Below, piece by piece: positions 3,119-48,648 of a DNA stretch of 64,000 bases. How positions within the stretch are numbered: position 1 is the first letter of the stretch; each line of letters starts with the position of its first letter. A program made the translations under genes and the position numbers. Origin of the DNA: a virus; the IMG/VR virus record IMGVR_UViG_3300009481_004294. One strand, 5' to 3'. The notes below the pieces were generated by a model that searched no databases, was not told where the DNA came from, and saw only the letters and a program-made list of their open reading frames with translations.

Positions 3119-3123
3119 AAGAC

Positions 3124-12769: not shown

Positions 12770-12815
12770 AAATTTATAAATTGATTCTGGTGAAGATTTA
12801 GGTGCAGAGACATAA

Positions 12816-15800
12816 ATGAAAGACGATCAAAAAGAACCACAAGACTTAGATTTAAGTAAAGTTTTAGCTACTGCTCTTGCTTATACTAAAAAAACACTTA
12901 AAAAGACTAAAGAAGAACTTGTTGTAGGCATAAAAGAAATTTTAGATCCTGTAACTGGTGAAAAAGTCAGAGTTCTTGAAATCAAAGGTACAGAAGGTTC
13001 CAAGGGCGAAAAAGGTGAAAAGGGAGAGCAAGGAGAGATTGGTCCCGTTGGTGAACGAGGGGAAGACGGGAGAATTGGGCCTCAAGGTGTTCAAGGACCT
13101 CAGGGAGAGCAGGGAGAAACTGGACCCGAGGGACCCGAGGGAGAAAAGGGCGATCCTGGTGATGATGCTGAAGTAACTAGACTTGAAATTGAAATAGAAG
13201 GCATCAAAAAAGTTGTTAAAGAAGTTAGTTCAAAAGCAACCCAAACTGCACAAAAAGTAGCAGGAGGAAGCGGTTGGGGTGAAGGCGGCGGTGGAGGAGG
13301 AGCTTCTGGAATACACGGAACACATGGAACTTCTGGATCTGCGGGTTCATCTGGCGAAACTCATGGTACTTCTGGATCTTCTGGAGTTGATGGAACGTTT
13401 TTAGGCACTCATGGTACTTCTGGCTCTGCAGGAAGTTCTGGAGGAACAGGAAGTCATGGTACTTCTGGCTCTGCAGGATCATCTGGATCTGCTGGTTCGT
13501 CTGGCTCATCTGGGTCTACAGGAACTTCTGGATCATCTGGTTTAACATATGCTTCATCTGGATCTTCTGGAACTGCAGGAACATCTGGTCGTGATGGCGG
13601 TTCTTATATTCATATTCAATCTTCAGCCCAACCTGTTTGGTTAATAAATCATAATTTAAATACTAGACCAATAAACATATTAGTAGTAGATAGTGATTAC
13701 AATGTAATTTATCCTGAATCTGTTCAATTTATTGATTCCAATACTGTAAAAATAATCTGGCCTTCCTCTCAAGCAGGATTTGCTTCAATCACTTTTGGTG
13801 AAGCCTCTTCTGGTACTTCAGGAACATCTGGATTAACATATGCTTCTTCTGGTTCTGCTGGCTCTGCAGGAAGTGCTGGATCTACTGGTTCTGCAGGAAG
13901 TTCGGGAAGTGCTGGAAGTGCAGGAAGTTCGGGATCGTCTGGTCGTGATGCTTCTTCTGGATCATCTGGTTCTTCTGGAACATCTGGAACATCTGGAGTA
14001 GATGGTGAACAAGGAGATACGGGAGAAGGAGGAACTTCTGGTTCGTCAGGAACTACTGGAACGCATGGAAGTTCTGGTTCTTCGGGAACAGATGGGACAT
14101 CAGGAACATCTGGATCAGATGGAACTGAAGGAGATACAGGACCTCAAGGAACTGGAGGAACATCTGGCTCTGCAGGAAGTTCGGGAAGTGCTGGATCGTC
14201 TGGTTCATCTGGAGAAGATGGAACTTCGGGATCGTCTGGTTCATCTGGAGAAGATGGAACTTCTGGATCTTCTGGATCGTCTGGTTCTGCAGGAAGTTCT
14301 GGAACTTCTGGAACTGCTGGTACAAGTGGAACTTCTGGAACTGCTGGATCATCTGGTATAGATGGTGGTTTTGGAGGAGCTTCATTTTCATATCGTTACA
14401 ATACTACACAAGGTACGGATGATCCAGGAACAGGGAAAATAGCATTTACTCTAACTTCTGGTACTTTTACAACTCCTGATCAAGCTAATAGATTAAGAAT
14501 AAGTGATACTGATCAAGACGGAACAATAATTGATAGTTTTTTACAAACAATTAATGATGTTGCTTTTAGTGATCCTAAAGGACATTTACGAATTTATGAT
14601 AAAGATGATCCAGATGAATTTATGTTATATGGTATCAATGAATTTGATACTGTAAATCCTTCATGGTATTATGTAAAAGTTACATATTTAGATTCCTCAT
14701 TAACTGATTTTCAAAACGCAACTGAACTTGTTGCAACATTTGCAAGAACTGGTGATTCTGGAACTTCTGGATCTGCTGGTTCATCTGGATCTGCGGGTAG
14801 TGCTGGATCCGCTGGTTCTGCTGGAAGTGCTGGCTCTGCAGGGAGTGCGGGTTCTGCAGGAACTGCTGGTTCTGCTGGTTCATCTGGATCCGCTGGATCT
14901 TCTGGATTGACATATGCTTCTTCTGGATCTGCTGGATCGTCTGGATTGACATTTGCTTCATCTGGATCATCTGGAGGAACAGGAAGTCATGGAACTTCTG
15001 GAACTACTGGAACTTCTGGCTCTGCTGGAAGTACTGGTTCTGCAGGTTCTGCAGGTAGTGCTGGATCTTCTGGACAAGATGGTGGTTCTTATATTCATAA
15101 TCAAGAGTCAGCGGCATCCGTTTGGTTAATAAATCATCATCTAGGTGTTAGACCTTTAAATACTACAGTTGTAAATACTGATTATGATGTAATTTATCCA
15201 GAATCGATTAGATTTACAGATTCACGTACTGTTAAATTAGTTTTTACATCTGCAGTAGCGGGTTGGTGTGCATTAACTTTTGGAGAAGGCTCTTCTGGAA
15301 CTTCTGGTTCTTCTGGAACTTCTGGATCGTCTGGTTCTGCAGGATCTGCTGGTTCTGCTGGTTCTGCAGGATCGTCTGGATCGTCTGGTTCTGCAGGAAG
15401 TGCAGGTAGTGCTGGATCATCTGGATGGACTTATGCTTCTTCTGGATCGTCTGGTTCTGCAGGAAGTGCTGGCTCTGCTGGAAGTGCTGGATCTGCTGGT
15501 TCTGCTGGAAGTGCAGGAAGTTCGGGAAGTGCTGGATCGTCTGGCTCTGCAGGAAGTTCGGGAAGTGCTGGATCTGCTGGTTCCGCTGGTTCTGCAGGGA
15601 GTGCTGGTTCATCTGGATCTGCAGGAAGCTCTGGATCTTCTGGTACTTCTGGATCTTCTGGTTCATCTGGCTCTGCAGGAAGTGCTGGCTCTGCTGGAAG
15701 TGCTGGCTCTGCAGGATCATCTGGATCTGCTGGTTCATCTGGCTCTGCAGGATCATCTGGATCTGCTGGTTCATCTGGCTCTGCAGGAAGTGCTGGAAGT

Positions 15801-17855
15801 GCTGGCTCTACAGGAAGTTCGGGAAGTGCTGGATCATCTGGTCGTGATGGTGTTTTTGGAGGAGCGGCTTTTGAATATGATTTTTCAAATACAGCATTTG
15901 TAGGAGCTACAAGTGATCCTGGTGCGGGTAAACTTAACGTAGGATTCGATAATGGATCTATTACTTTAGAGGATGATACTGGAAGTTTTATTTTAGAAAC
16001 AGAGTCGGATCTTTTATTAGAGGGAGGTTCTACACCTACTGATTTTTCTACAGTTAACAGAATTTCTATAAGCGAAACTGATGTAAATGGAACATCAACT
16101 GAAAGTTTTTTAAGTCAAGTTCAAACAGCAACATCTGCAATTAAAGGTCATGTAAGAATTCATCGAAAAACATATTCTGACCAATATGCAATGTTTACCA
16201 TTCATTATGTTACTAATAATACAGATTTTCAAGAAATAGAAGTTACAAAAGTTGGTGGTGAAAATGCATTTTTTGCTAATGATGAAGACATAGTTGTTAC
16301 ATTTGCAAGAACTGGTGATGCTGGAACATCTGGAACATCTGGATCATCTGGATTAACTTATGCTTCTTCTGGAAGTGCTGGCTCTGCAGGAAGTGCAGGA
16401 AGTTCTGGAACTGCAGGATCGTCTGGTCGTGATGGGGGTTCTTTTACTCATGAACAATCTTCAGCGGCATCTGTTTGGTTAATAAATCATACTTTAACAA
16501 AAAGAGTTATAAATGTTCAAGTTTGTGATGATGATTATAATGTAATTTATCCAGAATCTATTCAATTTACGGATTCAAATAATATAAAAATAGTATTTCC
16601 TACTGCAATAGCAGGATGGGCTACAGTAACGTTTGGAGAATCAACTTCTGGTACTTCTGGAACTGCAGGATCATCTGGAATAACTTATGCTTCTTCTGGA
16701 TCGTCTGGTTCTGCAGGAAGTGCTGGCTCTGCTGGAAGTGCTGGATCTGCTGGTTCTGCTGGAAGTGCAGGAAGTTCGGGAAGTGCTGGCTCTGCAGGAA
16801 GTGCTGGTTCATCTGGCTCTGCAGGAAGTGCTGGAAGTGCTGGAAGTGCAGGAAGTGCTGGCTCTTCTGGTTCTGCAGGAAGTGCTGGATCCGCAGGAAC
16901 TTCTGGAACTGCAGGAACTTCTGGACTAGATGGTAATTTTGGAGGAGCATCTTTTGAATATGATTTTGAAAATACAACATTTACAGGTGCATCAAGCGAT
17001 CCAGGTTCTGGTAAACTTGAAGTAGGTATTGATACTGGATCTGCACCAACTGATTTCTCTACAGTTAACAGAATTTCTATAAGCGAATTAGATGTAAATG
17101 GTACATCAACTGAGAGTTTTCTAGATCAAGTTGATGGTGCAACATCTGCAATTAAAGGTCATGTAAGAATTCATAAAAGATTTAATAGTGATCAATATGT
17201 AATATTTACAATTTCAGATGTTACTAATAATACAGATTTTCAAGAAATAGAAGTTTCAAAGATCGGAGGACAAACTGCATTATTTTCCGATGATGAAGAT
17301 ATAGTTGTTACATTTGCAAGAACTGGTGATGCTGGAACATCTGGAACTGCTGGAACTTCAGGAACTGCAGGAACTTCTGCTTCTGCTGGTTCTGCAGGAA
17401 GTGCTGGATCATCTGGCTCTGCAGGAACTTCTGGAACTACTGGTTCTTCAGGAAGTGCAGGAAGTTCGGGAAGTGCTGGATCGTCTGGCTCTGCAGGAAC
17501 TGCAGGATCCTCTGGATTTTTAAATCTAAATAATTCTGCAGAAGATCGTTTAATTTCTATTAATGCTGATACTGAATCTGGTGATGGAGAAACAAATTTA
17601 ACATTTGATGGAAATGAATTAAATGTAACTGGTAAAACTTTTTTGGTGGGTACAAGTGGAACAACTGGTTATATTCAAATGTCTCAAAGAGATGATGTTT
17701 CAGGAAATAAACCTACTTTGACTGCAGGTCAATCTGCAGTTTTTTCAAGTTCTTCGGGAGCAGGAGGAACAGGAATATATTTTAAACAAGGAACTGATGA
17801 TCCCGATGAATTGGTTTCACGCAAAAAAGCAATAACTTATGGATTAATATTCTAA
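12816..17855 (+). CDS. Giant collagen-like fibre protein 1 (1679 aa): N-terminal collagen and coiled coil, Gly-Ser-Ala/Thr triplet tracts, alternating globular modules A-B-A-B-A-B
   Basis: 20 classical G-X-Y triplets, long (GSA/GSS/GTS)n tracts, three ~70-aa (Y/F)xHxQ...W.I.H modules and three ~140-aa FGGA.F.Y...FARTGD modules. Confidence 0.8.
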   Translation: MKDDQKEPQDLDLSKVLATALAYTKKTLKKTKEELVVGIKEILDPVTGEKVRVLEIKGTEGSKGEKGEKGEQGEIGPVGERGEDGRIGPQGVQGPQGEQGETGPEGPEGEKGDPGDDAEVTRLEIEIEGIKKVVKEVSSKATQTAQKVAGGSGWGEGGGGGGASGIHGTHGTSGSAGSSGETHGTSGSSGVDGTFLGTHGTSGSAGSSGGTGSHGTSGSAGSSGSAGSSGSSGSTGTSGSSGLTYASSGSSGTAGTSGRDGGSYIHIQSSAQPVWLINHNLNTRPINILVVDSDYNVIYPESVQFIDSNTVKIIWPSSQAGFASITFGEASSGTSGTSGLTYASSGSAGSAGSAGSTGSAGSSGSAGSAGSSGSSGRDASSGSSGSSGTSGTSGVDGEQGDTGEGGTSGSSGTTGTHGSSGSSGTDGTSGTSGSDGTEGDTGPQGTGGTSGSAGSSGSAGSSGSSGEDGTSGSSGSSGEDGTSGSSGSSGSAGSSGTSGTAGTSGTSGTAGSSGIDGGFGGASFSYRYNTTQGTDDPGTGKIAFTLTSGTFTTPDQANRLRISDTDQDGTIIDSFLQTINDVAFSDPKGHLRIYDKDDPDEFMLYGINEFDTVNPSWYYVKVTYLDSSLTDFQNATELVATFARTGDSGTSGSAGSSGSAGSAGSAGSAGSAGSAGSAGSAGTAGSAGSSGSAGSSGLTYASSGSAGSSGLTFASSGSSGGTGSHGTSGTTGTSGSAGSTGSAGSAGSAGSSGQDGGSYIHNQESAASVWLINHHLGVRPLNTTVVNTDYDVIYPESIRFTDSRTVKLVFTSAVAGWCALTFGEGSSGTSGSSGTSGSSGSAGSAGSAGSAGSSGSSGSAGSAGSAGSSGWTYASSGSSGSAGSAGSAGSAGSAGSAGSAGSSGSAGSSGSAGSSGSAGSAGSAGSAGSAGSSGSAGSSGSSGTSGSSGSSGSAGSAGSAGSAGSAGSSGSAGSSGSAGSSGSAGSSGSAGSAGSAGSTGSSGSAGSSGRDGVFGGAAFEYDFSNTAFVGATSDPGAGKLNVGFDNGSITLEDDTGSFILETESDLLLEGGSTPTDFSTVNRISISETDVNGTSTESFLSQVQTATSAIKGHVRIHRKTYSDQYAMFTIHYVTNNTDFQEIEVTKVGGENAFFANDEDIVVTFARTGDAGTSGTSGSSGLTYASSGSAGSAGSAGSSGTAGSSGRDGGSFTHEQSSAASVWLINHTLTKRVINVQVCDDDYNVIYPESIQFTDSNNIKIVFPTAIAGWATVTFGESTSGTSGTAGSSGITYASSGSSGSAGSAGSAGSAGSAGSAGSAGSSGSAGSAGSAGSSGSAGSAGSAGSAGSAGSSGSAGSAGSAGTSGTAGTSGLDGNFGGASFEYDFENTTFTGASSDPGSGKLEVGIDTGSAPTDFSTVNRISISELDVNGTSTESFLDQVDGATSAIKGHVRIHKRFNSDQYVIFTISDVTNNTDFQEIEVSKIGGQTALFSDDEDIVVTFARTGDAGTSGTAGTSGTAGTSASAGSAGSAGSSGSAGTSGTTGSSGSAGSSGSAGSSGSAGTAGSSGFLNLNNSAEDRLISINADTESGDGETNLTFDGNELNVTGKTFLVGTSGTTGYIQMSQRDDVSGNKPTLTAGQSAVFSSSSGAGGTGIYFKQGTDDPDELVSRKKAITYGLIF
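12987..13166 (+). repeat. Classical collagen G-X-Y tract (20 triplets, GEK/GPQ/GPE)
   Basis: Runs GTE GSK GEK ... GDP GDD; counted from the translation. Confidence 0.9.
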
Positions 17856-20800
17856 TATGTCTATCGAAACAAATTTAATAGCAAATACAAATAGTGCAAC
17901 AGCCACTACAGTTTATACTTCATCAGGAGAGTCTGCAGTTACAACAATATTTTTTTGTAATACAGATTCTTCTGCTATTGATGTAACATGTTGGATTGTT
18001 CCTAATGGTGACACATTGGGAGATGAACACATGATAATGAAAGAATTAACAATAAATGCAACTGATACTTTTGCTTTTGGAAGTGAAAGAATTTTAATGG
18101 GAGCAAGCGATACTATTCAAGCAATCGCTGATACAGTAGATAAAGTTTCAGTAGTAATTAGCTATACGAGTATTTAATTAATGGCACTATTTCTTAAAGG
18201 CGAATACGCAGATTATAGTTTAAAAGAGAAAACAACTTCTGGTTCCGCTGGCTCTGCTGGATCTGCGGGGAGTGCTGGATCTGCAGGTTCTGCTGGTTCT
18301 GCAGGATCGTCTGGATTGACATATGCTTCATCTGGAAGCTCTGGCTCTGCGGGTTCTGCAGGGAGTGCTGGATCTTCTGGACAAGATGGTAGTTCTTTTG
18401 TTCATACTCAATCTTCAGCTTCACTTGTCTGGTTGATAACTCATGGTTTAGGAACTAGACCAGTAAATATAGAAGTTGTTGATGATAATTATAATGTTAT
18501 TATACCAGAATCTATTCAATTTATTGATGGAAATAATGTAAAAATAGTATTTACTTCTTCACAAGCAGGATATGCCGCCATAACTTATGGACAGGGTTCT
18601 TCTGGAACTTCTGGTTCTGCAGGAACTTCTGGTTCTTCGGGAATGGGTGGAACTGCTGGATCATCTGGATCTACTGGTTCTACAGGAAGTGCTGGCTCTG
18701 CAGGATCATCTGGCTCTGCGGGAAGTGCAGGAAGTTCTGGGAGTGCTGGTTCTTCTGGTTCTGCAGGAACTTCTGGAACTACTGGAACTTCTGGAACTGC
18801 AGGAACATCTGGACAAGATGGAAATTTTGGTGGTCAATCTTTTGAATATGATTTTGAAAATACAACATTTACAGGCGCCGCAAGTGATCCAGGTTCTGGT
18901 AAACTTGTAGTAGGAATTGATACTGGATCTGCACCTACAGATTTTTCTACAGTTGATAGAATTTCTATGAGTGAAGCTGATGTAAATGGTACATCAACTG
19001 AAAGTTTTCTAGATCAAGTTGATGGTGCAACATCCGCAATTAAAGGACATGTAAGAATATCGAAAAAATTTGATACAAGTACGTATGTAATGTTTACTAT
19101 CTCGGATGTTACTAATGATTCGGGTTTTCAAGAAATAGAAGTTTCGAAAATAGGAGGACAAACTGCATTATTTGATGATGATGAAGACATAATTGTTACA
19201 TTTGCAAGAACTGGTGATGCTGGAACTTCTGGAACATCTGGTTCTTCAGGAAGTGCTGGTTCTGCAGGATCATCTGGCTCTGCGGGAAGTGCTGGCTCAT
19301 CTGGATCCGCTGGCTCTGCGGGAAGTGCGGGTAGTGCTGGAAGTGCTGGTTCTGCTGGAAGTGCTGGCTCTGCAGGAAGTGCTGGTTCTTCGGGGGCAGG
19401 AGGAACACACGGAACTGCAGGTAGTGCTGGATCTGCTGGTTCATCTGGATCTGCAGGAAGTGCTGGCTCTGCGGGTTCTGCAGGAAGTGCTGGATCTTCT
19501 GGACAAGATGGCGGATCTTATATTCATACTCAATCTTCAGCTTCACTTGTCTGGTTTATACCTTATAATTTAAATACTAGGCCTGTAAATATAGAAGTTG
19601 TTGATGATAATTATAATGTAATTTATCCAGAATCTATTCAATATATTGATTCAAATAATGTAAAAATAGTATTTCCTACTACTCAAGCAGGATATGCGGC
19701 GGTAACTTTTGGTGAAGGATCGTCTGGATCATCTGGTTCGTCTGGATTGACTTATGCTTCATCTGGATCATCTGGTACTTCTGGATCATCTGGGAGTGCT
19801 GGTTCTTCAGGAAGTGCTGGATCTGCTGGTTCCGCTGGCTCATCTGGATCCGCTGGCTCTGCAGGAAGTGCTGGTTCATCTGGCTCTGCAGGAAGTGCTG
19901 GAAGTGCTGGAAGTGCAGGAAGTGCTGGCTCTGCAGGAAGTGCTGGCTCTGCTGGTTCTGCGGGCTCTTCTGGATACACTTATGCTTCATCTGGTTCATC
20001 TGGCTCTGCGGGAAGTGCTGGTTCTGCAGGATCATCTGGTTCGTCAGGAACTACTGGAACTTCTGGAACATCTGGTTCTTCAGGAAGTGCTGGTTCTGCA
20101 GGATCATCTGGCTCTGCGGGAAGTGCTGGTTCTGCTGGATCCGCTGGCTCTGCAGGAAGTGCTGGAAGTGCTGGTTCATCTGGTTCTGCTGGTTCTTCAG
20201 GAAGTGCTGGAAGTGCAGGAAGTGCTGGCTCTACAGGAAGTGCTGGATCCGCTGGCTCTGCAGGGAGTGCTGGATCATCCGGTCGTGATGGTGGATCTTA
20301 CATTCATACACAATCTACACCTGCAATTGTTTGGTTAATACCTTATAATTTAGGAACTCGACCTGTAAATATAGAAGTTGTTGATACTAATTATAATGTT
20401 ATTGTACCAGAATCCACTCAATATGTTGATTCTAATACTGTAAAAATAATTTTTCCCATTGCTCAAGCAGGATTTGCCGCAATAACTTTTGGTGAAGGAT
20501 CGTCTGGAACTTCTGGATCTTCAGGAACTTCTGGATCTTCAGGAACTTCTGGATCGTCTGGACAAGATGGAAACTTTGGTGGTGCATCTTTTCAATATGT
20601 TTTTGAAGATACTTCATTTACAGGATCAGCAAGTGATCCTGGTTCTGGAAGACTTGAAGTAGGTATTGATACTGGATCTGCACCAACTGATTTCTCTACA
20701 GTTAATAGACTTTCTATAAGTGAAACAGATTCAAATGGTGCCGATACTGAAAGTTTTCTAGATCAAGTTGATGCATCATCTTCAGCAATTAAAGGTCATA

Positions 20801-22210
20801 TAAGATTGGCCGCACTATTTGATGCTGGTCAATATGTAATGTTTACAGTTGGTGATCTTACGAATGCAGGAGATTATCAAGAAATAGAAGTTACAAAGAT
20901 TGGTGGACAAGACGCATTTTTTGCTGATGATGCTGATATACTTTTTACAGTTGCAAGAACTGGTGATGTTGGTACCTCAGGAACTTCTGGATCGTCTGGT
21001 AGTTCTGGATCTGCTGGCTCTGCGGGTTCTGCTGGAAGTGCTGGATCTGCTGGCTCTGCAGGAAGTGCTGGATCCGCTGGCTCTGCAGGAAGTTCTGGAA
21101 GTGCTGGCTCATCTGGCTCTGCAGGAAGTGCAGGTTCTGCAGGAAGTGCAGGAAGTGCAGGTACTGCTGGAAGTGCTGGAAGTGCTGGCTCTGCAGGAAG
21201 TGCTGGATCATCTGGTCGTGATGGCGGATCTTTTCTTCATACTCAATCTACACCTGCACTTGTTTGGTTAATAAGTCACGCTTTAAATATTAGACCTCTA
21301 AATGTAGAAATTACTGATACTAATTTTAATATAATTATTCCAGAATCAATTCAATTTATTGATTCTAATACTGTAAAAGTTATTTTTCCCACTACTCAAG
21401 CAGGATATGCGGCACTTACTTTTGGTGAAGGATCGTCTGGAACTTCTGGTTCATCTGGATTGACTTATGCTTCATCTGGTTCTTCTGGAACTGCAGGAAC
21501 TACTGGCTCTGCGGGTTCATCTGGATCGTCTGGTTCTGCTGGAAGTGCTGGTTCTGCAGGGAGTGCTGGCTCTGCTGGAAGTGCTGGAAGTGCTGGATCG
21601 TCTGGTTCTGCAGGAAGTTCTGGTTCTGCTGGCTCTGCAGGATCGTCTGGTTTAACTTATGCTTCATCTGGTTCATCGGGTTCTTCTGGAGAAACTGGAA
21701 CTGCTGGATCGTCTGGTTCTGCAGGAAGTTCTGGTTCTGCTGGCTCTGCAGGAAGTGCTGGATCATCTGGATCTGCAGGAAGTACAGGAAGTGCTGGCTC
21801 TGCAGGAAGTGCTGGATCGTCTGGTTCTGCAGGAAGTTCTGGTTCTTCAGGAAGTGCAGGGAGTGCTGGAACATCTGGAACAGATGGAACTGATGGAAAT
21901 GCTGGCGGTGCTTACATTCATACTCAATCTTCAGCCGCACTTGTCTGGTTGATAACTCATGGTTTAAATACTAGACCTTTAAATATCGAAGTTGTTGATG
22001 GTAATTATAATGTTATTATACCAGAATCTACTCAATATATTGATTCTAATACTGTAAAAATAATTTTTCCCACTACTCAAGCAGGATATGCTGGTCTCAC
22101 ACACGGAGAAGGATCTTCTGGAACATCTGGTACTTCTGGACTAACTTATGCTTCATCTGGATCTGCAGGAAGTGCTGGATCTGCAGGGACTTCTGGTGTT
22201 TCTGGAAGTC
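13300..22210 (+). repeat. Coding 9-bp-period repeats (ggntcngcn / ggnagtgcn) encoding Gly-Ser-Ala/Ser/Thr triplets, interspersed with globular modules
   Basis: Visible in both DNA and protein across both fibre genes; third codon positions vary. Confidence 0.9.
17857..18177 (+). CDS. Small virion structural protein (fibre-associated)
   Basis: 106 aa, beta-rich; TTVYTS...FCN...L..GDTIQA..D pattern; sits between the two fibre genes. Confidence 0.6.
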   Translation: MSIETNLIANTNSATATTVYTSSGESAVTTIFFCNTDSSAIDVTCWIVPNGDTLGDEHMIMKELTINATDTFAFGSERILMGASDTIQAIADTVDKVSVVISYTSI

Positions 22211-22911
22211 TTCCAGCAGGAGGTGCTGGTCAAATTCAATATTATGCAACATCATCTACTCTTGGAGCGTATTCTGGATTTCTTGTAGATGATGTTACAA
22301 CTCCAACTCAGATAGCCATGAATTTTCCAATTTACTCTTCAAGTGGTGCAACTGGATTAGCTAATCTTAAAGTACATGGAACATCTGGACTTGATGGAGC
22401 AACTACAGTAGGGGGGACTTTAACTACAGTAGATATTCTTCCTTCTGCAAATAATACGAGTGATGTTGGTTCAGCAACAATGGTTTATAATGACATGTAT
22501 GCAGTTACATTTAACGGAAGAGCAACTTCAGCAAACTGGTCTGACTTGGCCGAGAGATATGAATCAGATAAAATATATGAACCAGGAACTGTTTTAGCAG
22601 TAGGAGGAACAAAAGAGGTCACATTATATCAAGTTGACATGCCTTATGCTGGTGTTGTTTCAGATAAACCTGGATTGAGAATGAATGATGGTATGATACA
22701 AAGAGAAAATGAATTTATGCTTTTTATTTGTTTGAAAGGAAGAATATTAGTTAAGATTGAGGGAGGATGTAATAAAGGAGATTTTATTATAGCTTATAAA
22801 GATGGAACTGGAAAAGTTATAACTAAATATGAATATGAACCACACAAACATGATTTAATTGGAATAGCATTAACTAATAGTAATGGTGATTTTGTAGAAG
22901 TAAAAGTATGA
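18181..22911 (+). CDS. Giant fibre protein 2 (1576 aa): Gly-Ser-Ala tracts, modules A-B-A-A-B-A-A, C-terminal chaperone/autocleavage-like domain
   Basis: Same A (x5) and B (x2) modules as fibre 1. C-terminal DLAERY...YEPGTVL.VGG...GVVSDKPG...LKGRI.VK resembles intramolecular-chaperone (peptidase G2-like) fibre tips. Confidence 0.8.
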
Positions 22912-22928
22912 TATAGAAAGAAAGCAAT

Positions 22929-23471
22929 ATGTCTAGTGAACAACAGGGTGAACATGCAAAAAATGTAGATGCTCTTTTTAATGAAGAAAGAGGAGCCTGT
23001 TATAGAAAAATTTCAGATTCACCATGGTGGTCTGATTTAGATTTTGAAAGCGAACAAGATGAAGATTTAATGTTTATTGAACTTTGGTCTTCAGTAGTTA
23101 CTAATGAACACTATAAAGCATATAGAGTGATAACTTCACAAGGTATAGAAGATGATGATCCAGAAAGAGAAAATTTAATAAAAGAATTTAGTGAACCAGG
23201 TCCAGATTTTGTTCATCCAAGCGTTTTTGTTAGAGGAAGAATATTAAATGATTTTGAATCATTATCTGTTAAATATGGAGAAGACACATTCGAAACTTAT
23301 ATAAAAAAATTGTATAATGATTATCCCGTGCCTGAAGATCAAGAAACTTTAAATTGGGTTACAGAAAATAATAAAAATCCTGATTTTTTACTTAATCATA
23401 AATGGAAGATTTTATCTGAATTATTGAGTTCAATTCATAATTATTGTGCGAATAAAGGAATATCATTATGA
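22929..23471 (+). CDS. Hypothetical acidic protein
   Basis: 180-aa ORF immediately after fibre 2; overlaps the next gene by ATGA. Confidence 0.6.
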   Translation: MSSEQQGEHAKNVDALFNEERGACYRKISDSPWWSDLDFESEQDEDLMFIELWSSVVTNEHYKAYRVITSQGIEDDDPERENLIKEFSEPGPDFVHPSVFVRGRILNDFESLSVKYGEDTFETYIKKLYNDYPVPEDQETLNWVTENNKNPDFLLNHKWKILSELLSSIHNYCANKGISL

Positions 23472-24052
23472 CTCAAACTGAAAGAATGCGTGTTTTTAAA
23501 AAGGCTTGGGTAAAAACAATTGAAAGAACATTGTATTCTCCGAATATTTCAGCAAATGCTATAGGAGCTGGTATGTTTCTAGGTGAAGTTTCTATGCAAT
23601 TATTTCCAGATAATAATTTAACTGAAAAATTAGACTTTTCTGTTGGGGAAAAATATGTTGATATGAGATCATTAAAGCACGATATAATTAATTTGACAGG
23701 ATCAGAAATAATTCCTTTTACAAGTGCAAATGATTTAACTGAATCTATGCGTGGATCTAGTGCATTATATCTTCATGGTGAGAATTCTAGATTACTTAAA
23801 AAATTAGGAACTCAAATTAATGCATGTGTTCATTTAGGCAATGGTTATTTTATTGATAATATGACAGGTAGTTCATTTACTTGGGATGGATATAAATATG
23901 ATAATGAATTTGAACCTAGATTATTATGGTGGACAAAGATTCATTATAATCCAACAATACATATAAATGGTATGTATTGTAGGCCTAACAATTTAGGAGA
24001 TAATAATGATGAAATTGTGTGGAGAGATTTTTGGGATGGAATATGCCCTTAG
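23468..24052 (+). CDS. Hypothetical protein (weak NlpC/P60-like C-terminal motif)
   Basis: Coupled ORF; NACVHLGNGYFID resembles HVGIYLGNGxFIH but lacks the His. Confidence 0.5.
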   Translation: MTQTERMRVFKKAWVKTIERTLYSPNISANAIGAGMFLGEVSMQLFPDNNLTEKLDFSVGEKYVDMRSLKHDIINLTGSEIIPFTSANDLTESMRGSSALYLHGENSRLLKKLGTQINACVHLGNGYFIDNMTGSSFTWDGYKYDNEFEPRLLWWTKIHYNPTIHINGMYCRPNNLGDNNDEIVWRDFWDGICP

Positions 24053-24423: not shown

Positions 24424-24430
24424 GAATTAT

Positions 24431-25024: not shown

Positions 25025-25033
25025 AGAAATAAT

Positions 25034-37808: not shown

Positions 37809-38575
37809 AAATCATTTCAAAATATAATAATACCTGGATGGCATATTTTGGATTTCAAATTTTATTTCATATATTAACTGTTGTTGGATTGTTATATTCA
37901 TCATGGCATTGGCTGTGGTTGTCTTTAGTGGGCATTATTTTTTTCAGACATATTGGTGTAGAAATTGGCGCCCATCGATATTTTGCACATAAAAGTTTTA
38001 AAGCAAAACCTTGGGCTAAAAAATTAATGGCCATTTGTGGACTTTTTGCATATGGAGGAACACACTATGCTTGGATTCCTTTTCATAGACTACATCATCA
38101 AAAATCAGACACTAAATTGGATCCCCATTCACCACATCACATGAGTTTCATAGATGTTTATTTTACTAACTGGCGAGTTGAAGTGTTAGATGTTAAATTG
38201 TATCAAGATTTAATAGAAGATAAATTTTTACAATTTTTACATAGAAATTATTTAATTATAGTAACTACACCATTAATTTTATTTGCATTGATAGATTGGA
38301 GAATATCTGTTTTTCTATTTGCTATTCCAAGTGCATTTGCACTTCATTCTGGGGGGCTGGTAAATTCTATAGGGCATTTATATGGATATAGAAATTTTGA
38401 TGATACAAACGATAAAAGTCGAAATTCTACATGGGTGAATATACTAACTTTAGGAGAAGGTCTGCAGAATAATCATCATGCACATCCTGAAAGATATAAT
38501 TTTAAAATGTCTAATAGATGGTATGAGACAGATTTTTTGAACGTTTTTCTAATAGAAAAGTTTTTAAAGGCGTGA
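37805..38575 (+). CDS. Membrane fatty-acid desaturase 3
   Basis: HRYFAH / HRLHH / QNNHH. Confidence 0.9.
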   Translation: MKIISKYNNTWMAYFGFQILFHILTVVGLLYSSWHWLWLSLVGIIFFRHIGVEIGAHRYFAHKSFKAKPWAKKLMAICGLFAYGGTHYAWIPFHRLHHQKSDTKLDPHSPHHMSFIDVYFTNWRVEVLDVKLYQDLIEDKFLQFLHRNYLIIVTTPLILFALIDWRISVFLFAIPSAFALHSGGLVNSIGHLYGYRNFDDTNDKSRNSTWVNILTLGEGLQNNHHAHPERYNFKMSNRWYETDFLNVFLIEKFLKA

Positions 38576-39438
38576 TAATGTTTAAATATGAGATGACACG
38601 AAATGCAATTATTATTGGGATGATGATTCATTTATCTTTTCATGTTTTATTAGTATATGGAATAATAACTTTTTCTTTACATTGGTTGTGGTTAACATTA
38701 ATAGGAACCATTTTAATTCGACATATAGGAACTGAAATAGGCGCTCACAGGTATTATACTCATCAAAGTTTTAAAGCAAATCCGTGGGCACAGTGGCTTA
38801 TGTCTATTTTATTTGTATGGAATTATGGAGGTAGTATGTTAGCATGGTGTCCTGGACACAGTTATCATCATAGATTTTCTGATAGTAAACATGATATACA
38901 ATCTCCACATTATATAAAAAAATTTAAAGATTTTGTTAGAGTTGTTTTTCCTGCAGTATTCGCATATGAAAAATTATATAACGATGAAATTGATAAAATG
39001 AGAATGAAAAGATACATGGAATGGTTTCATGAAAAGAGGGGTTTTATGGAATTAATGAAGAATAAACCAGCGAGATTTACTCATAATTATTATTGGTTGA
39101 TTGTATCTCTTCCAATTATAATTTTACCAATAATTGATATTCGTTTATTAATCTTTCTTATAGCAATACCATGTGTAATTAATTTTTGGTCTTTGGCTCT
39201 ACTAAATTTTTTTGGACATATTTCTACTATTGGAAGTTATAAAAATTTCGAAACTGATGAGTGGGGTAACAAGGAACGTTCAGTTAATACTCTATGGTTA
39301 AATATATTTACTGGGGGAATGGGACTACAAAATAATCACCATCATAATTCAAGAGCCTATAATTTTAAAATGAATGATAAATGGCATGAAACAGATTTTT
39401 TGAATGTATTTTTAATAGAAAAATTTTTAAAGGTTTAA
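38572..39438 (+). CDS. Membrane fatty-acid desaturase 4
   Basis: HRYYTH / HSYHH / QNNHH. Confidence 0.9.
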   Translation: MIMFKYEMTRNAIIIGMMIHLSFHVLLVYGIITFSLHWLWLTLIGTILIRHIGTEIGAHRYYTHQSFKANPWAQWLMSILFVWNYGGSMLAWCPGHSYHHRFSDSKHDIQSPHYIKKFKDFVRVVFPAVFAYEKLYNDEIDKMRMKRYMEWFHEKRGFMELMKNKPARFTHNYYWLIVSLPIIILPIIDIRLLIFLIAIPCVINFWSLALLNFFGHISTIGSYKNFETDEWGNKERSVNTLWLNIFTGGMGLQNNHHHNSRAYNFKMNDKWHETDFLNVFLIEKFLKV

Positions 39439-39439
39439 C

Positions 39440-40279
39440 ATGTTCAAATTTACAGCAAATAGGTTTGCAGTTATTATGATTTCTATTATTCATACGTTAT
39501 TTCATATATTAACTGTATATGGATTAATAACTTTTTCTTTACATTGGTTATGGTTATCTTTTATTGGTGTTATATTATTACGACATATCGGTACAGAAAT
39601 AGGAAATCATCGATATTTTTGTCATAGGAGTTTTGAAGCAAAACCTTGGGCAGAATGGCTTATGATGATTGGATATGCATTTTCGTATGGAGGAAGTAAT
39701 ATAGCATATGCTATAGGTCATAGATGGCATCATGCTACATCTGATACTGAAAAAGATCCAATTTCTCCTCATAACATTAAGAATGTTAAAGATGTTTTTA
39801 GAATTATAACTCAAACTTTAGGAGAACTTCAACAGGAAGAACGTAAAGATTGGAATATTTTTAGAAAAAGTGAAAATAAATTTTGTAAAAAATTATTTAA
39901 AAATAAAGTAGCAAGATTCAATCATGAATATTATTGGTTAATAGCACTTTCTCCCATTGTAATTTTATCAATAATCGATATTCGTTTGTTAATATTTTTT
40001 ATAGCATTACCTTGTGTTATAACTTTTTGGTCTGGAATGTTAGCACATTTTTTAGGACATGTAATGTTATTTGGTTGTTATAGAAATTATGAAACTACAG
40101 TTGATGATCTATCGGTAAATAATCCATGGTTAAATATAATAACAGGAGGATTAGGAACATTACATAATAATCATCATGCACATCCTGAAAGATATAATTA
40201 TAAAATGTCTAATAGATGGTATGAGACAGATTTTCCCAATGTGTTTTTAATAGAAAAGTTTTTAAAACATGATAGATAA
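39440..40279 (+). CDS. Membrane fatty-acid desaturase 5
   Basis: HRYFCH / HRWHH / HNNHH. Confidence 0.9.
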   Translation: MFKFTANRFAVIMISIIHTLFHILTVYGLITFSLHWLWLSFIGVILLRHIGTEIGNHRYFCHRSFEAKPWAEWLMMIGYAFSYGGSNIAYAIGHRWHHATSDTEKDPISPHNIKNVKDVFRIITQTLGELQQEERKDWNIFRKSENKFCKKLFKNKVARFNHEYYWLIALSPIVILSIIDIRLLIFFIALPCVITFWSGMLAHFLGHVMLFGCYRNYETTVDDLSVNNPWLNIITGGLGTLHNNHHAHPERYNYKMSNRWYETDFPNVFLIEKFLKHDR

Positions 40280-41063
40280 CCTTAATAAATTATTTGTTAA
40301 AGATTTTCAAATTAGTATATTACAATATGTGTGGATTTATACCTTTCCTATCATATCTGTATTGGGAATAATATATTCGTCATGGCATTGGTTGTTTTTA
40401 ACATTAGTGGGTATAATTTTGTTTAAAGATATTGGAGGCGAAATAGGAGTCCATAGATACTGGACACATAATTCATTTAAAGCGAAACCTTGGGTACCAA
40501 AATTATTTTCAATTTGTACAATTTTATGCTATGCTGGTAGTCCTCTTACTTGGTCATATGTTCATAGACATCATCATGAGCATTCTGATACTGAAAAGGA
40601 TGTACACTCTCCCCACCACAGCAAATGGTATCATATCTGGAGAGGATATTGGGATTTTTCAAAAATAGAAAAGTTTGATCCTAGATTCGTAGCAGATTTG
40701 TTGAAAGATGAATCAATAAAATTTGCACATCGATATCATTTATTGATTCAAATATGCGTAATCATAATAACTGTGTCTATAGATTGGAGAATATTTGTAT
40801 TTTTATTTGCTCTTCCTAGTGCAATAACATTTTGGTTTGGATCTATAGCTGTTAATATGATGAGTCATTTGTGGGGATATCGTAATTTTGAAACACCTGA
40901 TAATTCAAAAAATAATATACTTGCTTGTATTCTTGTTTCTTCTGGAGGATTACAAAACAATCATCATTATAATCCTTCTTCATATAATTTTAAAATGTCA
41001 GATAGATGGTATGAACAAGATATGAAAAATGTGTTTCTTATTGAAAGATTTTTTAAAGCATGA
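40269..41063 (+). CDS. Membrane fatty-acid desaturase 6
   Basis: HRYWTH / HRHHH / QNNHH. Confidence 0.9.
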   Translation: MIDNLNKLFVKDFQISILQYVWIYTFPIISVLGIIYSSWHWLFLTLVGIILFKDIGGEIGVHRYWTHNSFKAKPWVPKLFSICTILCYAGSPLTWSYVHRHHHEHSDTEKDVHSPHHSKWYHIWRGYWDFSKIEKFDPRFVADLLKDESIKFAHRYHLLIQICVIIITVSIDWRIFVFLFALPSAITFWFGSIAVNMMSHLWGYRNFETPDNSKNNILACILVSSGGLQNNHHYNPSSYNFKMSDRWYEQDMKNVFLIERFFKA

Positions 41064-41824
41064 TTAATTATTATATTAAATCTAAGCGAACTCCCTATTT
41101 TTTCTTAATTAATTTAATTGCTCATTTAGCAATTATACCCGCAATTCTTTATGGCGAATGGTGGATGTGGATATTAAGTTTGATATGGTGGCAGTGGATA
41201 GGATGTACAGCATATACTACTGGGTATCATAGGTATTATACTCATAAAAGTTTTAAAGCACCGCTTTGGTATGATTATTATTTTAATTTTTTTTCTTTAT
41301 TTGGTAATCCAGGACCAGTTCTTATATGGAGCGGAACACATAAATTACACCACAAATATAGTGATACGGAATTAGATCCACATAGTCCTAAACATAAAGG
41401 ATTTTGGAATGTGTGGACAAGTTTTTGGGGAATGGGAGTGTTTACAATAGATCCTCCTACAAGAGAAGATTTAAAAGATTGGTTAGAAGAAACAAAAGAT
41501 CCTATTGCTAAATGGTTTTATGATAATTATCTTTCTTTAACAGTTATTATTATGATTGTATTGTTATTCATGGGTCCTTGGTTTTTTATATTTGGTTTTT
41601 GTATTCCTACATGTTTAATACTTCATGGTTCGGGTATTATTAATGCATTTACTCATAAGAATGGAAAACCAGAGAATAAAAATTTAGTGGCATTGATAAC
41701 CGCTGGAGAAGGATGGCATTTGAATCATCATGAAGATCCATCTAATTATACGACAAGAAAAGAGTCGTATAAATGGTGGCAAGTTGACTTAAATGGTATA
41801 TGGATCAATTTAATTAAAATATAG
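41060..41824 (+). CDS. Membrane fatty-acid desaturase 7 (most divergent, closest to the canonical GEGWHxNHH type)
   Basis: HRYYTH / HKLHH / AGEGWHLNHH. Confidence 0.92.
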   Translation: MINYYIKSKRTPYFFLINLIAHLAIIPAILYGEWWMWILSLIWWQWIGCTAYTTGYHRYYTHKSFKAPLWYDYYFNFFSLFGNPGPVLIWSGTHKLHHKYSDTELDPHSPKHKGFWNVWTSFWGMGVFTIDPPTREDLKDWLEETKDPIAKWFYDNYLSLTVIIMIVLLFMGPWFFIFGFCIPTCLILHGSGIINAFTHKNGKPENKNLVALITAGEGWHLNHHEDPSNYTTRKESYKWWQVDLNGIWINLIKI

Positions 41825-41875
41825 GCTCGATATATATTAACACCAGAGAATGGAAACGAAAGTTCCGCTTTGGAC

Positions 41876-41948
41876 AGGGGTGTAGTTTAATTAAAACGGC
41901 CAACAGGGTGTTGGGAAGTTGTGAGTGTAAATCTCGCCACCCCGACCA
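41876..41948 (+). tRNA. Atypical tRNA-like RNA with GGG (Pro) anticodon and encoded CCA
   Basis: Manual cloverleaf. Acceptor aGGGGTG/CACCCCg (6 bp plus A1.G72), discriminator A, CCA. D stem GTTT/AAAC with AATTA loop. Anticodon arm CCAA-CAGGGTG-TTGG. T stem GTGAG/CTCGC with TGTAAAT loop. Confidence 0.6.
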
Positions 41949-41968
41949 AAATTAAAAAAAAGTATGTT

Positions 41969-42775
41969 ATGATTACAATTAATACATGGAAAAATAATTA
42001 TATTATTGCACATGATCCTCATTCAAAAATTGAAATAGATTCTTTGAATAAATTATTTGTTTCATTAGTAGATAAAATTGGGGGTAGTGATCAAGATTCT
42101 ATTGAACGAGCAAAGAGAAAAGGTGAATATTTATTAATTGCTGGACATGCAAATATAAAATATGAATTGTTAGCAAGAACTTTTCAAGATTTTCTTAAAC
42201 AATTTGAAATTGGTTATGATTGGAGAGGTGAAAGTTCTGCTGATAATATATCATTATTTAATGAATTAAATATTTTACCAACAGAAGATCCTTCTACAGG
42301 TGCTATAGGTGGAGGAGTGCCTGATGATAATCAGAATGAAATAGAATTAGGTATTCTTCCATTGGTCACTATTCTCAATACATTTGATGGAATTAGAACT
42401 TTTGGTTCATGTGAAGGACACTATGTTAAGTCTGATTTTCTCAATGCGTATATATCATGGACTGCTTGCAATATAAATGGACTAAATTATTCTACATTTC
42501 TTTTAAAAAATGCAATTAATGGTGTTTGGGAAAAAAGAAAATTAAATGATGATGAGAATTTTAATATAAATCAAATAATTAATAGAATTACATTAAGTTT
42601 TAATACAGGATATTGGAAGCCTGCACGTTTAAGGACTGCTCCATTACCAGGTGAAAATTTTTATCATTTTCGTTTTGATTATGAATTTAAATTTCGATCA
42701 CTTGTTTTTAATATAATAAATGATATTGCTGAACATATTATAAATGAAAAATATGAATTGTCAAAGGAGATATAA
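41969..42775 (+). CDS. Hypothetical protein with TFGSCEGH motif
   Basis: ATG at 41969 is preferred because the track's GTG at 41921 lies inside the tRNA-like element. Confidence 0.6.
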   Translation: MITINTWKNNYIIAHDPHSKIEIDSLNKLFVSLVDKIGGSDQDSIERAKRKGEYLLIAGHANIKYELLARTFQDFLKQFEIGYDWRGESSADNISLFNELNILPTEDPSTGAIGGGVPDDNQNEIELGILPLVTILNTFDGIRTFGSCEGHYVKSDFLNAYISWTACNINGLNYSTFLLKNAINGVWEKRKLNDDENFNINQIINRITLSFNTGYWKPARLRTAPLPGENFYHFRFDYEFKFRSLVFNIINDIAEHIINEKYELSKEI

Positions 42776-43038
42776 TGGCTAAAATTAGTGAAATATCTAA
42801 TGAGTTGAAGAAAAAACTTGAAGACACAATGCAGGGTGGATATACAGGAGGCTGTCAAGAGTGGATTAATTTAATTGCAACTGCTGAACCGTCAGAAAAT
42901 GAAAAAGAAGCAAATATGTTAAAAGCGTTAAATGATTTAACAACACAATTTACAGCAACGATGTCTGGAAATGCACCAGGTGATCTGACAATTTGGTATC
43001 AAGAATTAAACTTTGCTATGAATGAATATTTGACTTAA
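42775..43038 (+). CDS. Hypothetical small protein
   Basis: 87-aa ORF, TAATG coupling. Confidence 0.55.
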   Translation: MAKISEISNELKKKLEDTMQGGYTGGCQEWINLIATAEPSENEKEANMLKALNDLTTQFTATMSGNAPGDLTIWYQELNFAMNEYLT

Positions 43039-43045
43039 TAATCTT

Positions 43046-43729
43046 ATGAAAATAGAATTTTATGGTTCTAGTATAATAGGATCAAATACTTTTCAAATAG
43101 AAAAGCCTAAAGCATTCTATGATTTGATTCTTGATCATTTCAATGCTTCTTCATTAAATTATATGATAGCACAATGTTCAGAAGAAAGGATTCTTTACAA
43201 TTTAAAAAAGACCAGTGAAATTGATATAGCAATAATCTTTCATTCAACTCCTCAATTTATATATTTTCCAAATTTTACTAGAGATTTTATTTATATGAAT
43301 GATGATAGAGTTGATGATTGGGATAATCGGCAACATTTTTTAGATTATGTTGATGCTTTTAAACAAAACAGAAAAGACATAGTTACAAATTTTAGTGTAC
43401 CTACAGAACCTATTGATGCATCAATTATAAAAGATTTCATGAAATTACATTTTAATAGAGATGTAAATAGAAATAGATTTCATGGAGCATTATCTTTAAT
43501 TGATGAATATGTTTATTCAAAAAAAATACCAACAATACACGTTATAAATGATCATATTCCTGGTTGGTTTACTTTTAAATCGGGCATTATAGATGAAGAT
43601 ATTTGTGAAATCGAAAAAGAATATAGTGTATCATTCAATAAATCTGTAAATGGAATAAGTGAAGAGGGAAATAATCTTATTTTTAATAAATTAATTGGTT
43701 TGATCCAAAGTACAATACAAAGGACATAA
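43046..43729 (+). CDS. Hypothetical protein (SGNH-hydrolase-like layout, catalytic residues doubtful)
   Basis: N-terminal FYGSS and C-terminal NGISEEGN..IF resemble GDS...NH-type proteins. Confidence 0.45.
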   Translation: MKIEFYGSSIIGSNTFQIEKPKAFYDLILDHFNASSLNYMIAQCSEERILYNLKKTSEIDIAIIFHSTPQFIYFPNFTRDFIYMNDDRVDDWDNRQHFLDYVDAFKQNRKDIVTNFSVPTEPIDASIIKDFMKLHFNRDVNRNRFHGALSLIDEYVYSKKIPTIHVINDHIPGWFTFKSGIIDEDICEIEKEYSVSFNKSVNGISEEGNNLIFNKLIGLIQSTIQRT

Positions 43730-43733
43730 ACCA

Positions 43734-43741
43734 TATAAATA
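43734..43741 (+). promoter_or_regulatory. T4-type late promoter TATAAATA for the prohead genes
   Basis: Exact match, followed by a GAGG RBS and ATG 43774. Confidence 0.8.
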
Positions 43742-48622: not shown

Positions 48623-48648
48623 GTTTCTCTAAAAAACTTAGTATACAT

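Follow-up and report, generated by a model that had tools for sequence, protein, structure and literature searches.

A 31-kb insertion of fibre, radical SAM and polyketide/lipid genes interrupts the late structural genes of an uncultured T4-like phage from the sea

An island between gp20 and gp21

We analyzed a 64-kb stretch of viral DNA (IMG/VR record IMGVR_UViG_3300009481_004294), referred to here as the window, in which a 31-kb island of giant fibre genes and two sets of natural-product-type enzymes lies between the portal and the prohead protease genes. The window is part of a 76.9-kb IMG/VR contig, a metagenomic fragment that is ∼33% complete. PHROG searches identified gp13, gp14, gp15, gp16, gp17, gp18, gp19 and the gp20 portal in the left flank, and gp21 (45323), gp22 (46030) and gp23 (47282), followed by UvsW, gp47 and gp46 homologs, in the right flank. 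The homologs of gp13 to gp20 and of gp21 to gp23 follow the T4 order on one strand, as in Kyanoviridae-type modules. Since the portal is only ∼52% identical to the Kyanoviridae portals of cultured cyanomyophages, pelagimyophages and the Methylophilales phage Melnitz, we conclude from the sequence that the source phage is an uncultured marine T4-like (Kyanoviridae-like) myovirus.

Whereas the gp20-gp21 interval of the cultured phages Melnitz and S-H38 holds just one to three small open reading frames (ORFs), 31 kb and 32 genes separate gp20 from gp21 in the window, which marks the insertion as real and unusual. All 32 ORFs between 12816 and 43729 lie on the + strand. Overlaps were found at 22 of the 31 ORF junctions (11 of them of the 4-nucleotide [nt] ATGA type), and only two gaps exceed 17 nt, one of 46 nt before fibre 1 and one of 141 nt at 41825-41965. 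These counts bear out an earlier note on this DNA, which had described a run of co-oriented, often coupled genes splitting gp20 from the head genes. The gene order that it gave (fibres, Cys-repeat protein, three radical S-adenosylmethionine [SAM] enzymes, acyl carrier protein/polyketide synthase/oxidases, seven desaturases) was upheld by Pfam matches and histidine boxes, although a 71-amino-acid (aa) ORF at 26317-26532, between the first two radical SAM genes, had been overlooked.

The island is a real insertion within the late structural operon, and a recurrent one. It occupies the same gp20-gp21 position in the IMG/VR contigs G001, G002 and G005, whose portal is 88% identical, and in G004, whose head genes are 90 to 100% identical, and the layout was also present in independent ENA and Logan assemblies. 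Moreover, 72 to 99% of the sampled words of 24431-34400, a segment that spans the junction of the radical SAM and polyketide synthase (PKS) enzyme sets, were present in 20 sequencing runs, which come from six or more studies of marine, plankton and subsurface samples. Megablast of the island and the left flank against 50,697 phage records returned no match. An assembly chimera joining phage and bacterial DNA might be suspected in a metagenomic fragment of this completeness, the more so as natural-product enzymes are rare in phages. However, the layout is repeated across independent IMG/VR, ENA and Logan assemblies, strand and gene packing are continuous throughout the island, and the G+C content, ∼30% in the window, is the same in the island outside the Gly-rich fibres as in the remainder. 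The probability of a chimera is thus close to nil, and the chimeric assembly that had been named beforehand as a possible undoing of the island is refuted by the module junction in those 20 runs.

The island is a composite of two separable blocks that must be analyzed separately. Block A (12816-31033) comprises two collagen-like fibres, a Cys-heptad protein, three radical SAM enzymes and small helpers; block B, a lipid/polyketide gene set, spans about 31997-41824 and perhaps extends to 43729. The features of the island and its borders are as follows.

11087-12769, + strand: gp20 portal, left border of the island (phrog_213, E 1.5e-202)
12775-12782, + strand: TATAAATT, late-promoter-like motif 41 nt before fibre 1 (read from the sequence)
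12816-17855, + strand: collagen-like giant fibre 1, 1679 aa (Pfam Collagen, E 8.8e-87, 11 stretches; tail-fibre PHROGs)
17857-18177, + strand: 106-aa protein between the fibres (only phrog_1276, a PHROG of unknown function)
18181-22911, + strand: collagen-like giant fibre 2, 1576 aa (Pfam Collagen, E 2.1e-80; phrog_22593)
22929-24423, + strand: three conserved proteins of 180, 194 and 134 aa (no Pfam or PHROG match)
24431-25024, + strand: Cys-heptad protein, 197 aa with 37 Cys (phrog_26958, the CP220 gp140 family, E 1.7e-19)
25034-26320, + strand: radical SAM/SPASM enzyme 1 (Pfam Radical_SAM, Fer4_12 and SPASM)
26317-26532, + strand: 71-aa ORF that contains 4 Cys and overlaps the genes on either side (kept at 94% in L048 and 51% in L006)
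26525-27751, + strand: radical SAM/SPASM enzyme 2, the best-conserved cassette marker (PapB 142.5 bits, QhpD 96 bits)
27748-28679, + strand: 222-aa protein, a paralog of 41966-42775, and 87-aa helper protein
28676-30052, + strand: radical SAM enzyme 3, with N-terminal extension and partial C-terminal Cys cluster (Pfam Radical_SAM)
30046-32013, + strand: three proteins of 248, 91 and 327 aa (no family matches; 24 to 93% identity in relatives)
31997-32413, + strand: acyl carrier protein, likely start ATG at 32030 (Pfam PP-binding, 31.5 bits; DIDS serine motif)
32400-33524, + strand: TauD-family oxygenase with WHSNE motif (Pfam TauD, 42.7 bits)
33526-34143, + strand: short reductase of the short-chain dehydrogenase/reductase (SDR) type (weak adh_short match; TGxxxGxG and YxxxK motifs)
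34140-35168, + strand: type III PKS (Chal_sti_synt_N and _C, both above cut-off)
35165-35593, + strand: AcpS-type phosphopantetheinyl transferase (Pfam ACPS, 43.3 bits)
35590-36315, + strand: 2-oxoglutarate (2OG)-Fe(II) oxygenase (Pfam 2OG-FeII_Oxy, 62.2 bits)
36290-41824, + strand: seven tandem SCD/DesC-type membrane desaturases, D1 to D7 (Pfam FA_desaturase; SCD1 4ymk, E 2.5e-20)
41825-41965, + strand: 141-nt intergenic stretch, the only sizeable gap within the island (no tRNA, no Rfam family)
41966-43729, + strand: three closing proteins of 269, 87 and 227 aa (no family matches)
43734-43741, + strand: TATAAATA, late-promoter motif before small head-module genes (exact motif)
45323-45970, + strand: gp21 prohead protease, where the head module resumes (phrog_207, E 1.1e-79)

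The fibre, Cys-heptad and radical SAM cassette

A profile search with radical SAM 2 recovered the enzyme trio, in the same order and at 34 to 54% identity, in 27 further viral (IMG/VR) contigs, which range up to 214 kb. Here, a fibre sharing the C-terminal domain of fibre 2 usually lies just upstream, and a Cys-heptad protein, e.g., (C-T-C-N-C-N-Y)n, just downstream of the third enzyme. No PKS or desaturase was found in the 10-kb flanks of the cassette in any of the 27, and three of them, which are complete genomes (202 to 214 kb, with terminal repeats), contained neither anywhere. Because the trio occurs without PKS and desaturase genes, including in the three complete genomes, block A is, as judged from gene content, an autonomous phage cassette, and its distribution is that of a widespread and mobile one. 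In G003, the portal is only 51% identical to that of the window and gp20, gp21, gp22 and gp23 are contiguous; downstream of its gp46 homolog lie a fibre end, three genes of the 22929-24423 type, the heptad gene, radical SAM 1 (93%) and radical SAM 2 (92%). Since these enzymes are 93% and 92% identical whereas the portals are 51% identical and the genome positions differ, comparison of L006 and L013 of G003 with 24431-27751 suggests that the fibre/heptad/radical SAM cassette was recently transferred horizontally.

The window heptad protein consists of a ∼110-aa N-terminal part, a conserved helix and ∼12 units of C-P-C-N-C-(N/D)-F. Over 281 units the consensus reads C-(T/P)-C-(N/D)-C-N-(Y/F), with Asn at position 6 in 260 of them, and the helix preceding the repeat is conserved as I-x-A-x-x-I-N-x-L-I. 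Heptads without hydroxyls, C-P-C-N-C-N-F, occur in the window lineage and a few further contigs, and C-T-C-N-C-N-Y nearly everywhere else (L068, L073, L082, L089, L097 and L103 were compared with the remaining heptad loci). As to whether the P/F heptads are tied to the PKS, two extra contigs of this type (G010 and G011) are fragments without a PKS match. A two-heptad DNA pattern matched 58 stretches in IMG/VR versus only 5 in 185,579 prokaryotic species genomes. Radical SAM matches adjoin the heptad gene in three of these five, and a contig of 161 kb that carries one of the five also encodes a fibre at 71% identity, so that the heptad stretches in species genomes look like phage DNA. On the 161-kb contig L118 (PAAV01000055.1), labelled as a Chloroflexota metagenome-assembled genome, a collagen-like fibre sharing 71% identity with fibre 2 is accompanied by a heptad protein and a radical SAM 1 homolog (55%); the contig is probably of phage origin and was placed in a bacterial genome during binning.

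Several observations connect the heptad protein to the virion. Of 47 distinct heptad proteins, 8 run straight from the repeat into a ∼70-residue S74-type tail and ∼18 more end in the first twelve S74 residues, SD-x-R-L-K-x-x-I-x-Y-M; in the relative L039, Pfam Peptidase_S74 scored 28.1 bits against a cut-off of 22. S74 domains typify the trimeric fibres and spikes of phages. A homotrimer prediction of the Cys-heptad protein scored 0.00, a value that is not evidence either way. In the cultured Campylobacter phages CP220, CPt10 and CP21, the heptads lie in a 534-aa protein. Gene 3-9 of the Campylobacter phage IBB_35 is the ortholog (same coordinates after contig reversal, 92.6% nucleotide identity), and its product was among 38 proteins detected in purified virions by mass spectrometry (PMC3322345, Table S2). 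The CP220 paper mentions only a "21 bp repeat" in a hypothetical gene, along with many radical SAM genes (PMC2853527), and our full-text literature searches found no paper describing the heptad motif or radical SAM cross-linking of a virion protein.

The best NCBIfam match of all three enzymes is PapB (77.5, 142.5 and 53.5 bits), followed by the QhpD, SCIFF and CcpM maturases, and the best solved structure for radical SAM 2 is CteB (5wgg, E 6.7e-13). Pfam Radical_SAM matches all three, which also carry CxxxCxxC and C-terminal auxiliary-cluster Cys residues; the SPASM match of enzyme 1 (21.4 bits) is about at cut-off and the C-terminal Cys set of enzyme 3 is partial.

The three genes at 22929-24423 are present in every relative of the island and stand at its far end in L002 and L004. 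The 87-aa helper precedes radical SAM 3 in all cassettes and is kept in L027, L036 and L039. Paralogy of the 222-aa protein with 41966-42775 is based on L002 3977-4798, which matches both the 27748 and the 41921 ORFs of the window. For 41966-42775 and 23468-24052, Atlas look-ups gave only weak leads (0.83 to 0.89), those for 41966-42775 being SAM-binding folds. Fibre 1 contains 21% Gly and 2% Pro. The C-terminal domain of fibre 2, with its conserved "DLAE-Y ... LKGR-PV," had no sequence match in the PDB, and its AlphaFold2 model reached a pLDDT of 41, too low for use. In most cassettes without PKS, the gene immediately before the radical SAM genes encodes a truncated protein of ∼245 aa that resembles UDP-glucose dehydrogenase (L027 8079-8813); such a protein also precedes radical SAM genes in Campylobacter phages (L052, CP220, 6669-7439). 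Cassettes are accompanied as well by further radical SAM genes and by a gene for an IscA-like Fe-S assembly protein (L039 6194-6523).

The lipid/polyketide gene set, its links to block A and expression

The type III PKS scored 33.0 and 41.9 bits for Chal_sti_synt_N and _C, against cut-offs of 27. Its best solved relative is Pks11 of Mycobacterium tuberculosis (4jao, E 2.4e-29), with which the Cys, His and Asn triad aligned. Among 1.84 billion cluster representatives, members of its own clade share at least 65% identity and the next relatives at most 31%, and the nearest cellular homologs sit in ordinary bacterial operons of PKS, methyltransferase and flavin adenine dinucleotide (FAD) monooxygenase. 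A word-index search returned ∼20 clusters of the PKS clade at ≥68% identity, all metagenomic, and an IMG/VR profile scan with the PKS alignment recovered the same 4 loci as the single-sequence query.

Seven desaturases had been counted in the earlier note, and indeed all seven keep the SCD-type histidine boxes HxxxxH, HxxHH and (H/Q)xxHH, with Q replacing the first His of box 3 in D3, D4 and D6. Five of the seven pass Pfam FA_desaturase, and D5 and D7 fall below the reporting threshold with their boxes kept. In the desaturase tree we observed three orthogroups, all present in every relative: D1 belongs to group A, D2 to D6 to group B, which is expanded to five copies in the window, and D7 to group C. 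The WHSNE motif of the TauD-like protein, which had no sequence match in the PDB, recurs in L002 15433-16560, in L004 12836-13960 and in a 39% homolog in L025 (about 2547-3650). Gene content differs among lineages: L048 has no TauD gene and carries a FabA/ApeI-like dehydratase and an Asp/Asn hydroxylase, and a Rieske oxygenase is present in L002, L049 and L051.

Comparison of the window with L048, which represents a near-identical phage, revealed protein identities of 93 to 99.8% for the radical SAM block and 92 to 99% for the head genes, versus only 52 to 81% for the PKS block; three genes without an assigned function were 59 to 65% identical. Given 52 to 81% for the PKS block and 92 to 99.8% for its flanks, block B changes, by divergence or by exchange, far more rapidly than the genes on either side, in the manner of accessory islands. 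Its private acyl carrier protein (ACP) with its own phosphopantetheinyl transferase, together with the PKS, reductase, oxygenases and desaturases, indicates that block B is probably a dedicated pathway to an unsaturated phenolic or pyrone lipid.

In every PKS contig with readable context, the radical SAM trio lies directly upstream, so that block B was seen only beside block A. In L002 and L004, block A genes flank block B on both sides; the paralogs 27748 and 41966 place one member in each block; and a TauD homolog (39%) stands near the cassette in L025, a contig without PKS. These are hints, not evidence, that the heptad protein may be a substrate of some block B oxygenases. All PKS-bearing contigs come from a single phage lineage, so that inheritance from a common ancestor accounts for the co-occurrence just as well. 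Of the co-occurrence proposed for the two modules, one direction therefore stood and the other did not: wherever context was readable, the PKS set is beside the radical SAM set, but the radical SAM set occurs alone in 27 contigs, three of them complete genomes. The latter is part of what the earlier note had named as refuting its reading. Since it occurs without the PKS/desaturase set, the two sets are, on this comparison, not one obligate unit.

Blocks A and B are probably transcribed as one long late transcript from the promoter-like site before fibre 1, since operon layout and promoter-like motifs both fit. Exact TATAAATA copies stand in intergenic positions before gp18, before the 43774 gene (43734) and before gp22. 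The TATAAATT variant, found at 12775-12782 as previously noted, is similar to the TATAAATATAAAT(T) motifs that stand at 11029 (before gp20), at 43734 (before the 43774 gene) and at 45974 (before gp22); a motif of this type is not conserved before the fibre gene of G001. The exact motif at 43734 is likewise present, but it is not the next exact + strand copy as had been claimed, since another lies at 23891 inside ORF 23468-24052. Consensus scans for sigma-70 promoters and terminators within the island gave hits at chance level. The first clear terminator-like structure after the gp20-gp23 array, a strong hairpin with a T run, lies at 48623-48696, directly after gp23. Marine metatranscriptomes contained a 245-nt contig of the PKS gene and a few 150- to 200-nt contigs on the radical SAM genes and on 41946-42110, possibly derived from DNA carry-over and too little material to establish transcription or its timing.

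The 141-nt gap had been taken for a tRNA-like RNA, a candidate that we dropped. ARAGORN detected no tRNA, Rfam gave no match at gathering scores or at E ≤ 1, and the folding energy is ordinary (z −1.5). L002 lacks the gap junction, the 92% identity of the gap to L048 belongs to a block of 1.2 kb with 98% identity, and a 25-nt pattern from the gap had no match in IMG/VR. The gap does hold a GNRA-capped hairpin (GGAAC-GAAA-GTTCC), and its 3' part can be drawn as a degenerate cloverleaf.

Outside the island, the ORFs 2768-3118 and 7556-7978 are the only ones on the minus strand in the structural region, and an exact minus-strand TATAAATA directly precedes each of them (3124-3131 and 7984-7991). 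A 473-aa ORF between the small and large terminase genes (4511-5932) has no PHROG match and is 79% identical in G001; Melnitz encodes an F5/8 type C domain protein at the equivalent position. Downstream of gp46, an Asn-synthase/QueC-like protein adjoins a C-5 cytosine DNA methylase (58999-61061), and the two may form a DNA-modification pair.

Proposed roles, alternatives and known systems

Our overall reading, of moderate confidence, is that the two blocks serve separate ends, block A cross-linking a virion fibre protein and block B making an accessory lipid. The heptad protein would be a fibre-type virion protein, in which the three enzymes, as relatives of PapB, CteB and QhpD, would join heptad Cys residues to neighbouring Asn/Asp (or aromatic) residues after translation. 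Both the chemistry, thioethers from Cys to Asn/Asp, and the site are proposed, the chemistry by analogy with PapB and QhpD. Each heptad would offer three Cys and two Asn/Asp to the three enzymes, and the cross-linked repeat would form a covalently braced rod. In block B, the AcpS-type transferase would prime the private ACP, and a PKS of the alkylpyrone/alkylresorcinol kind, the short reductase, two Fe/2OG-type oxygenases and three kinds of desaturase would yield an oxygenated polyunsaturated phenolic or pyrone lipid. This lipid might act as a free compound, change the host membrane or decorate the virion. Because enzyme homology, synteny, S74 fusion in relatives and detection of the ortholog in virions converge, we consider enzymatic cross-linking of a virion fibre protein the most likely reading of block A. 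The "cross-linked fibres" suggested in the earlier note thus gain support for the Cys-heptad/radical SAM part from fibre synteny, S74 tails and the IBB_35 virion protein, with the chemistry still a matter of analogy; "lipidated fibres" gain none, as neither an acyltransferase nor a link between the PKS block and the virion was found.

A number of observations weigh against this picture. The window heptad protein itself has no S74 tail and ends in GPK right after the repeat, and the virion evidence comes from a distant Campylobacter phage at 2.6% sequence coverage (PMC3322345). The enzymes score far below every named maturase cut-off (53 to 142 bits versus 340 to 450; PapB, 340). The cross-linking chemistry is drawn from comparison, and the window protein could instead be a precursor of a ribosomally synthesized peptide with post-translational modifications (RiPP) or a metal-binding protein. 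In block B, the WHSNE motif of the TauD-like protein has Asn at the position expected for the iron-binding Asp, and no loading enzyme, thioesterase or acyltransferase was identified. The block B product is deduced from family membership, and the long-chain acyl starter and pyrone/resorcinol product from the closest solved relative, Pks11. The co-occurrence of the two blocks may reflect common descent in one lineage instead of shared function, and the metatranscriptome contigs are few, 150 to 250 nt long and maybe carried-over DNA.

An ordinary RiPP cluster, in which the 197-aa protein would be a long-leader precursor whose cross-linked core is released as a bioactive or metal-binding peptide and is not part of the virion, would fit the resemblance of the enzymes to the maturases PapB, CteB, SCIFF and CcpM and the missing S74 tail. 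The conserved helix directly before the repeat could then serve as the leader recognition sequence and the small helpers before radical SAM 3 as recognition elements. We nevertheless consider this unlikely, given that Pfam and PHROG scans revealed no leader peptidase or exporter in the island, the S74 fibre-chaperone motif stands at the end of over half of the heptad proteins, the virion proteome of IBB_35 includes the ortholog, the cassette usually adjoins fibre genes, and in CP220 the repeat occupies the middle of a protein of 534 aa. For block B, an alternative would be a set of auxiliary metabolic genes that sustain infection by remodelling host membrane lipids, for fluidity or oxidative protection, with no tie to fibres and no dedicated product. 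Desaturases are known auxiliary genes of cyanophages. Those of the island are of the SCD/DesC type, desaturases were reported in freshwater pelagimyophages (PMC7029224), and block B is far more divergent than its flanks, as accessory islands are. Against this, a dedicated pathway is suggested by the private ACP and phosphopantetheinyl transferase, the PKS with its intact triad, the reductase and the oxygenases, different lineages have retained three desaturase orthogroups (group B with five copies in the window), and block B was never seen apart from the radical SAM cassette; we give this alternative a low probability.

A virion decorated with lipid or polyketide, in which block B products would be attached to the fibres or the Cys-heptad protein (the strong form of what the earlier note suggested), appears very unlikely. 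Such attachment would account for the presence of block B only beside block A, for the block A genes on both sides of block B in L002 and L004 and for the 27748/41966 paralogs split between the blocks, and the island does hold Asp/Asn-hydroxylase and TauD kinds of oxygenase alongside Asn/Asp-rich heptads. Yet no acyltransferase or ligase candidate was found, block A is present without block B in three complete genomes, and the co-occurrence is limited to one lineage and perhaps simply inherited. A broader picture, that of a particle built with natural-product chemistry, in which a thioether-stapled heptad rod is combined with a polyunsaturated phenolic lipid that a variable, phage-only ACP/type III PKS/desaturase pathway supplies at the fibre or host surface, strikes us as speculative and doubtful; were it true, hypervariable chemistry would belong to the host-recognition arms race. 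Returning to the separate roles that we favour, cross-linking by block A would be a new way to mature virus particles and would give SPASM enzymes a new and large class of substrates. So far found only in phages, the self-contained polyketide/lipid cluster of block B is a candidate source of virus-made specialized metabolites in the ocean.

Known systems resemble parts of the island. Bacterial polyyne cassettes consist of a fatty acyl-AMP ligase, an ACP, three desaturases and a thioesterase. The ACP with three distinct types of membrane desaturase in the island recalls these as a lead only; Pfam detected no AMP-binding or thioesterase domain in any island ORF. With the bacterial phenolic-lipid pathways (Pks11; the Srs and Bps operons; Azotobacter ArsABCD), block B shares the PKS fold and triad. 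It differs in that its PKS is at most 31% identical, in its partners (ACP, AcpS, SDR, Fe/2OG oxygenases and three to seven desaturases) and in its place in a phage late operon, and, in contrast to the operons of the nearest cellular homologs, neither a methyltransferase nor an FAD monooxygenase was detected as its partner in the island. In the Azotobacter system, ArsA passes the acyl chain from its ACP directly to the PKS. The hypervariable "host recognition cluster" of pelagimyophages and cyanomyophages likewise forms large, non-syntenic islands within the structural region that mix fibre genes and enzymes, including radical SAM cassettes (PMC7029224). That cluster lies between VrlC and gp14 (PMC7029224), whereas the window island splits gp20 from gp21 and adds the PKS/desaturase set.

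The CXXX-repeat target system (TIGR04114/TIGR04115) also places a Cys-repeat protein beside radical SAM enzymes, but in the window heptad Cys takes up three of every seven positions as against one in four, and there are three enzymes instead of two. The window target has no Pfam or NCBIfam match and its enzymes score 30 to 59 bits against a TIGR04115 cut-off of 350. By these scores, the heptad/radical SAM system is a family separate from the CXXX-repeat system. PapB (freyrasin), CteB (thermocellin, SCIFF) and QhpD share with the island enzymes the CxxxCxxC core and SPASM-type C-terminal Cys, and the island enzyme genes, too, adjoin a Cys-rich repeat substrate containing Asn/Asp. The island differs from these systems in having three enzymes per substrate, the C-x-C-(N/D)-C-N-(Y/F) heptad and no protease or exporter. 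QhpD cross-links a folded protein subunit, quinohemoprotein amine dehydrogenase gamma, and not a small peptide. In relatives, the heptads lead directly into S74 or its first 12 residues, as in chaperone-bearing fibres of the endosialidase type, with Pfam Peptidase_S74 absent from the window protein. Likeness is also found in CP220 gp140, CPt10_1891 and IBB_35 gene 3-9, which have the same pre-repeat helix and C-T-C-(D/N)-C-N-Y heptads; numerous radical SAM genes are present in these phages, including one at 34% identity to radical SAM 2. CP220 gp140 differs in its length of 534 aa, in a further Cys-rich C-terminal part and in that its gene is not adjacent to the enzyme trio.

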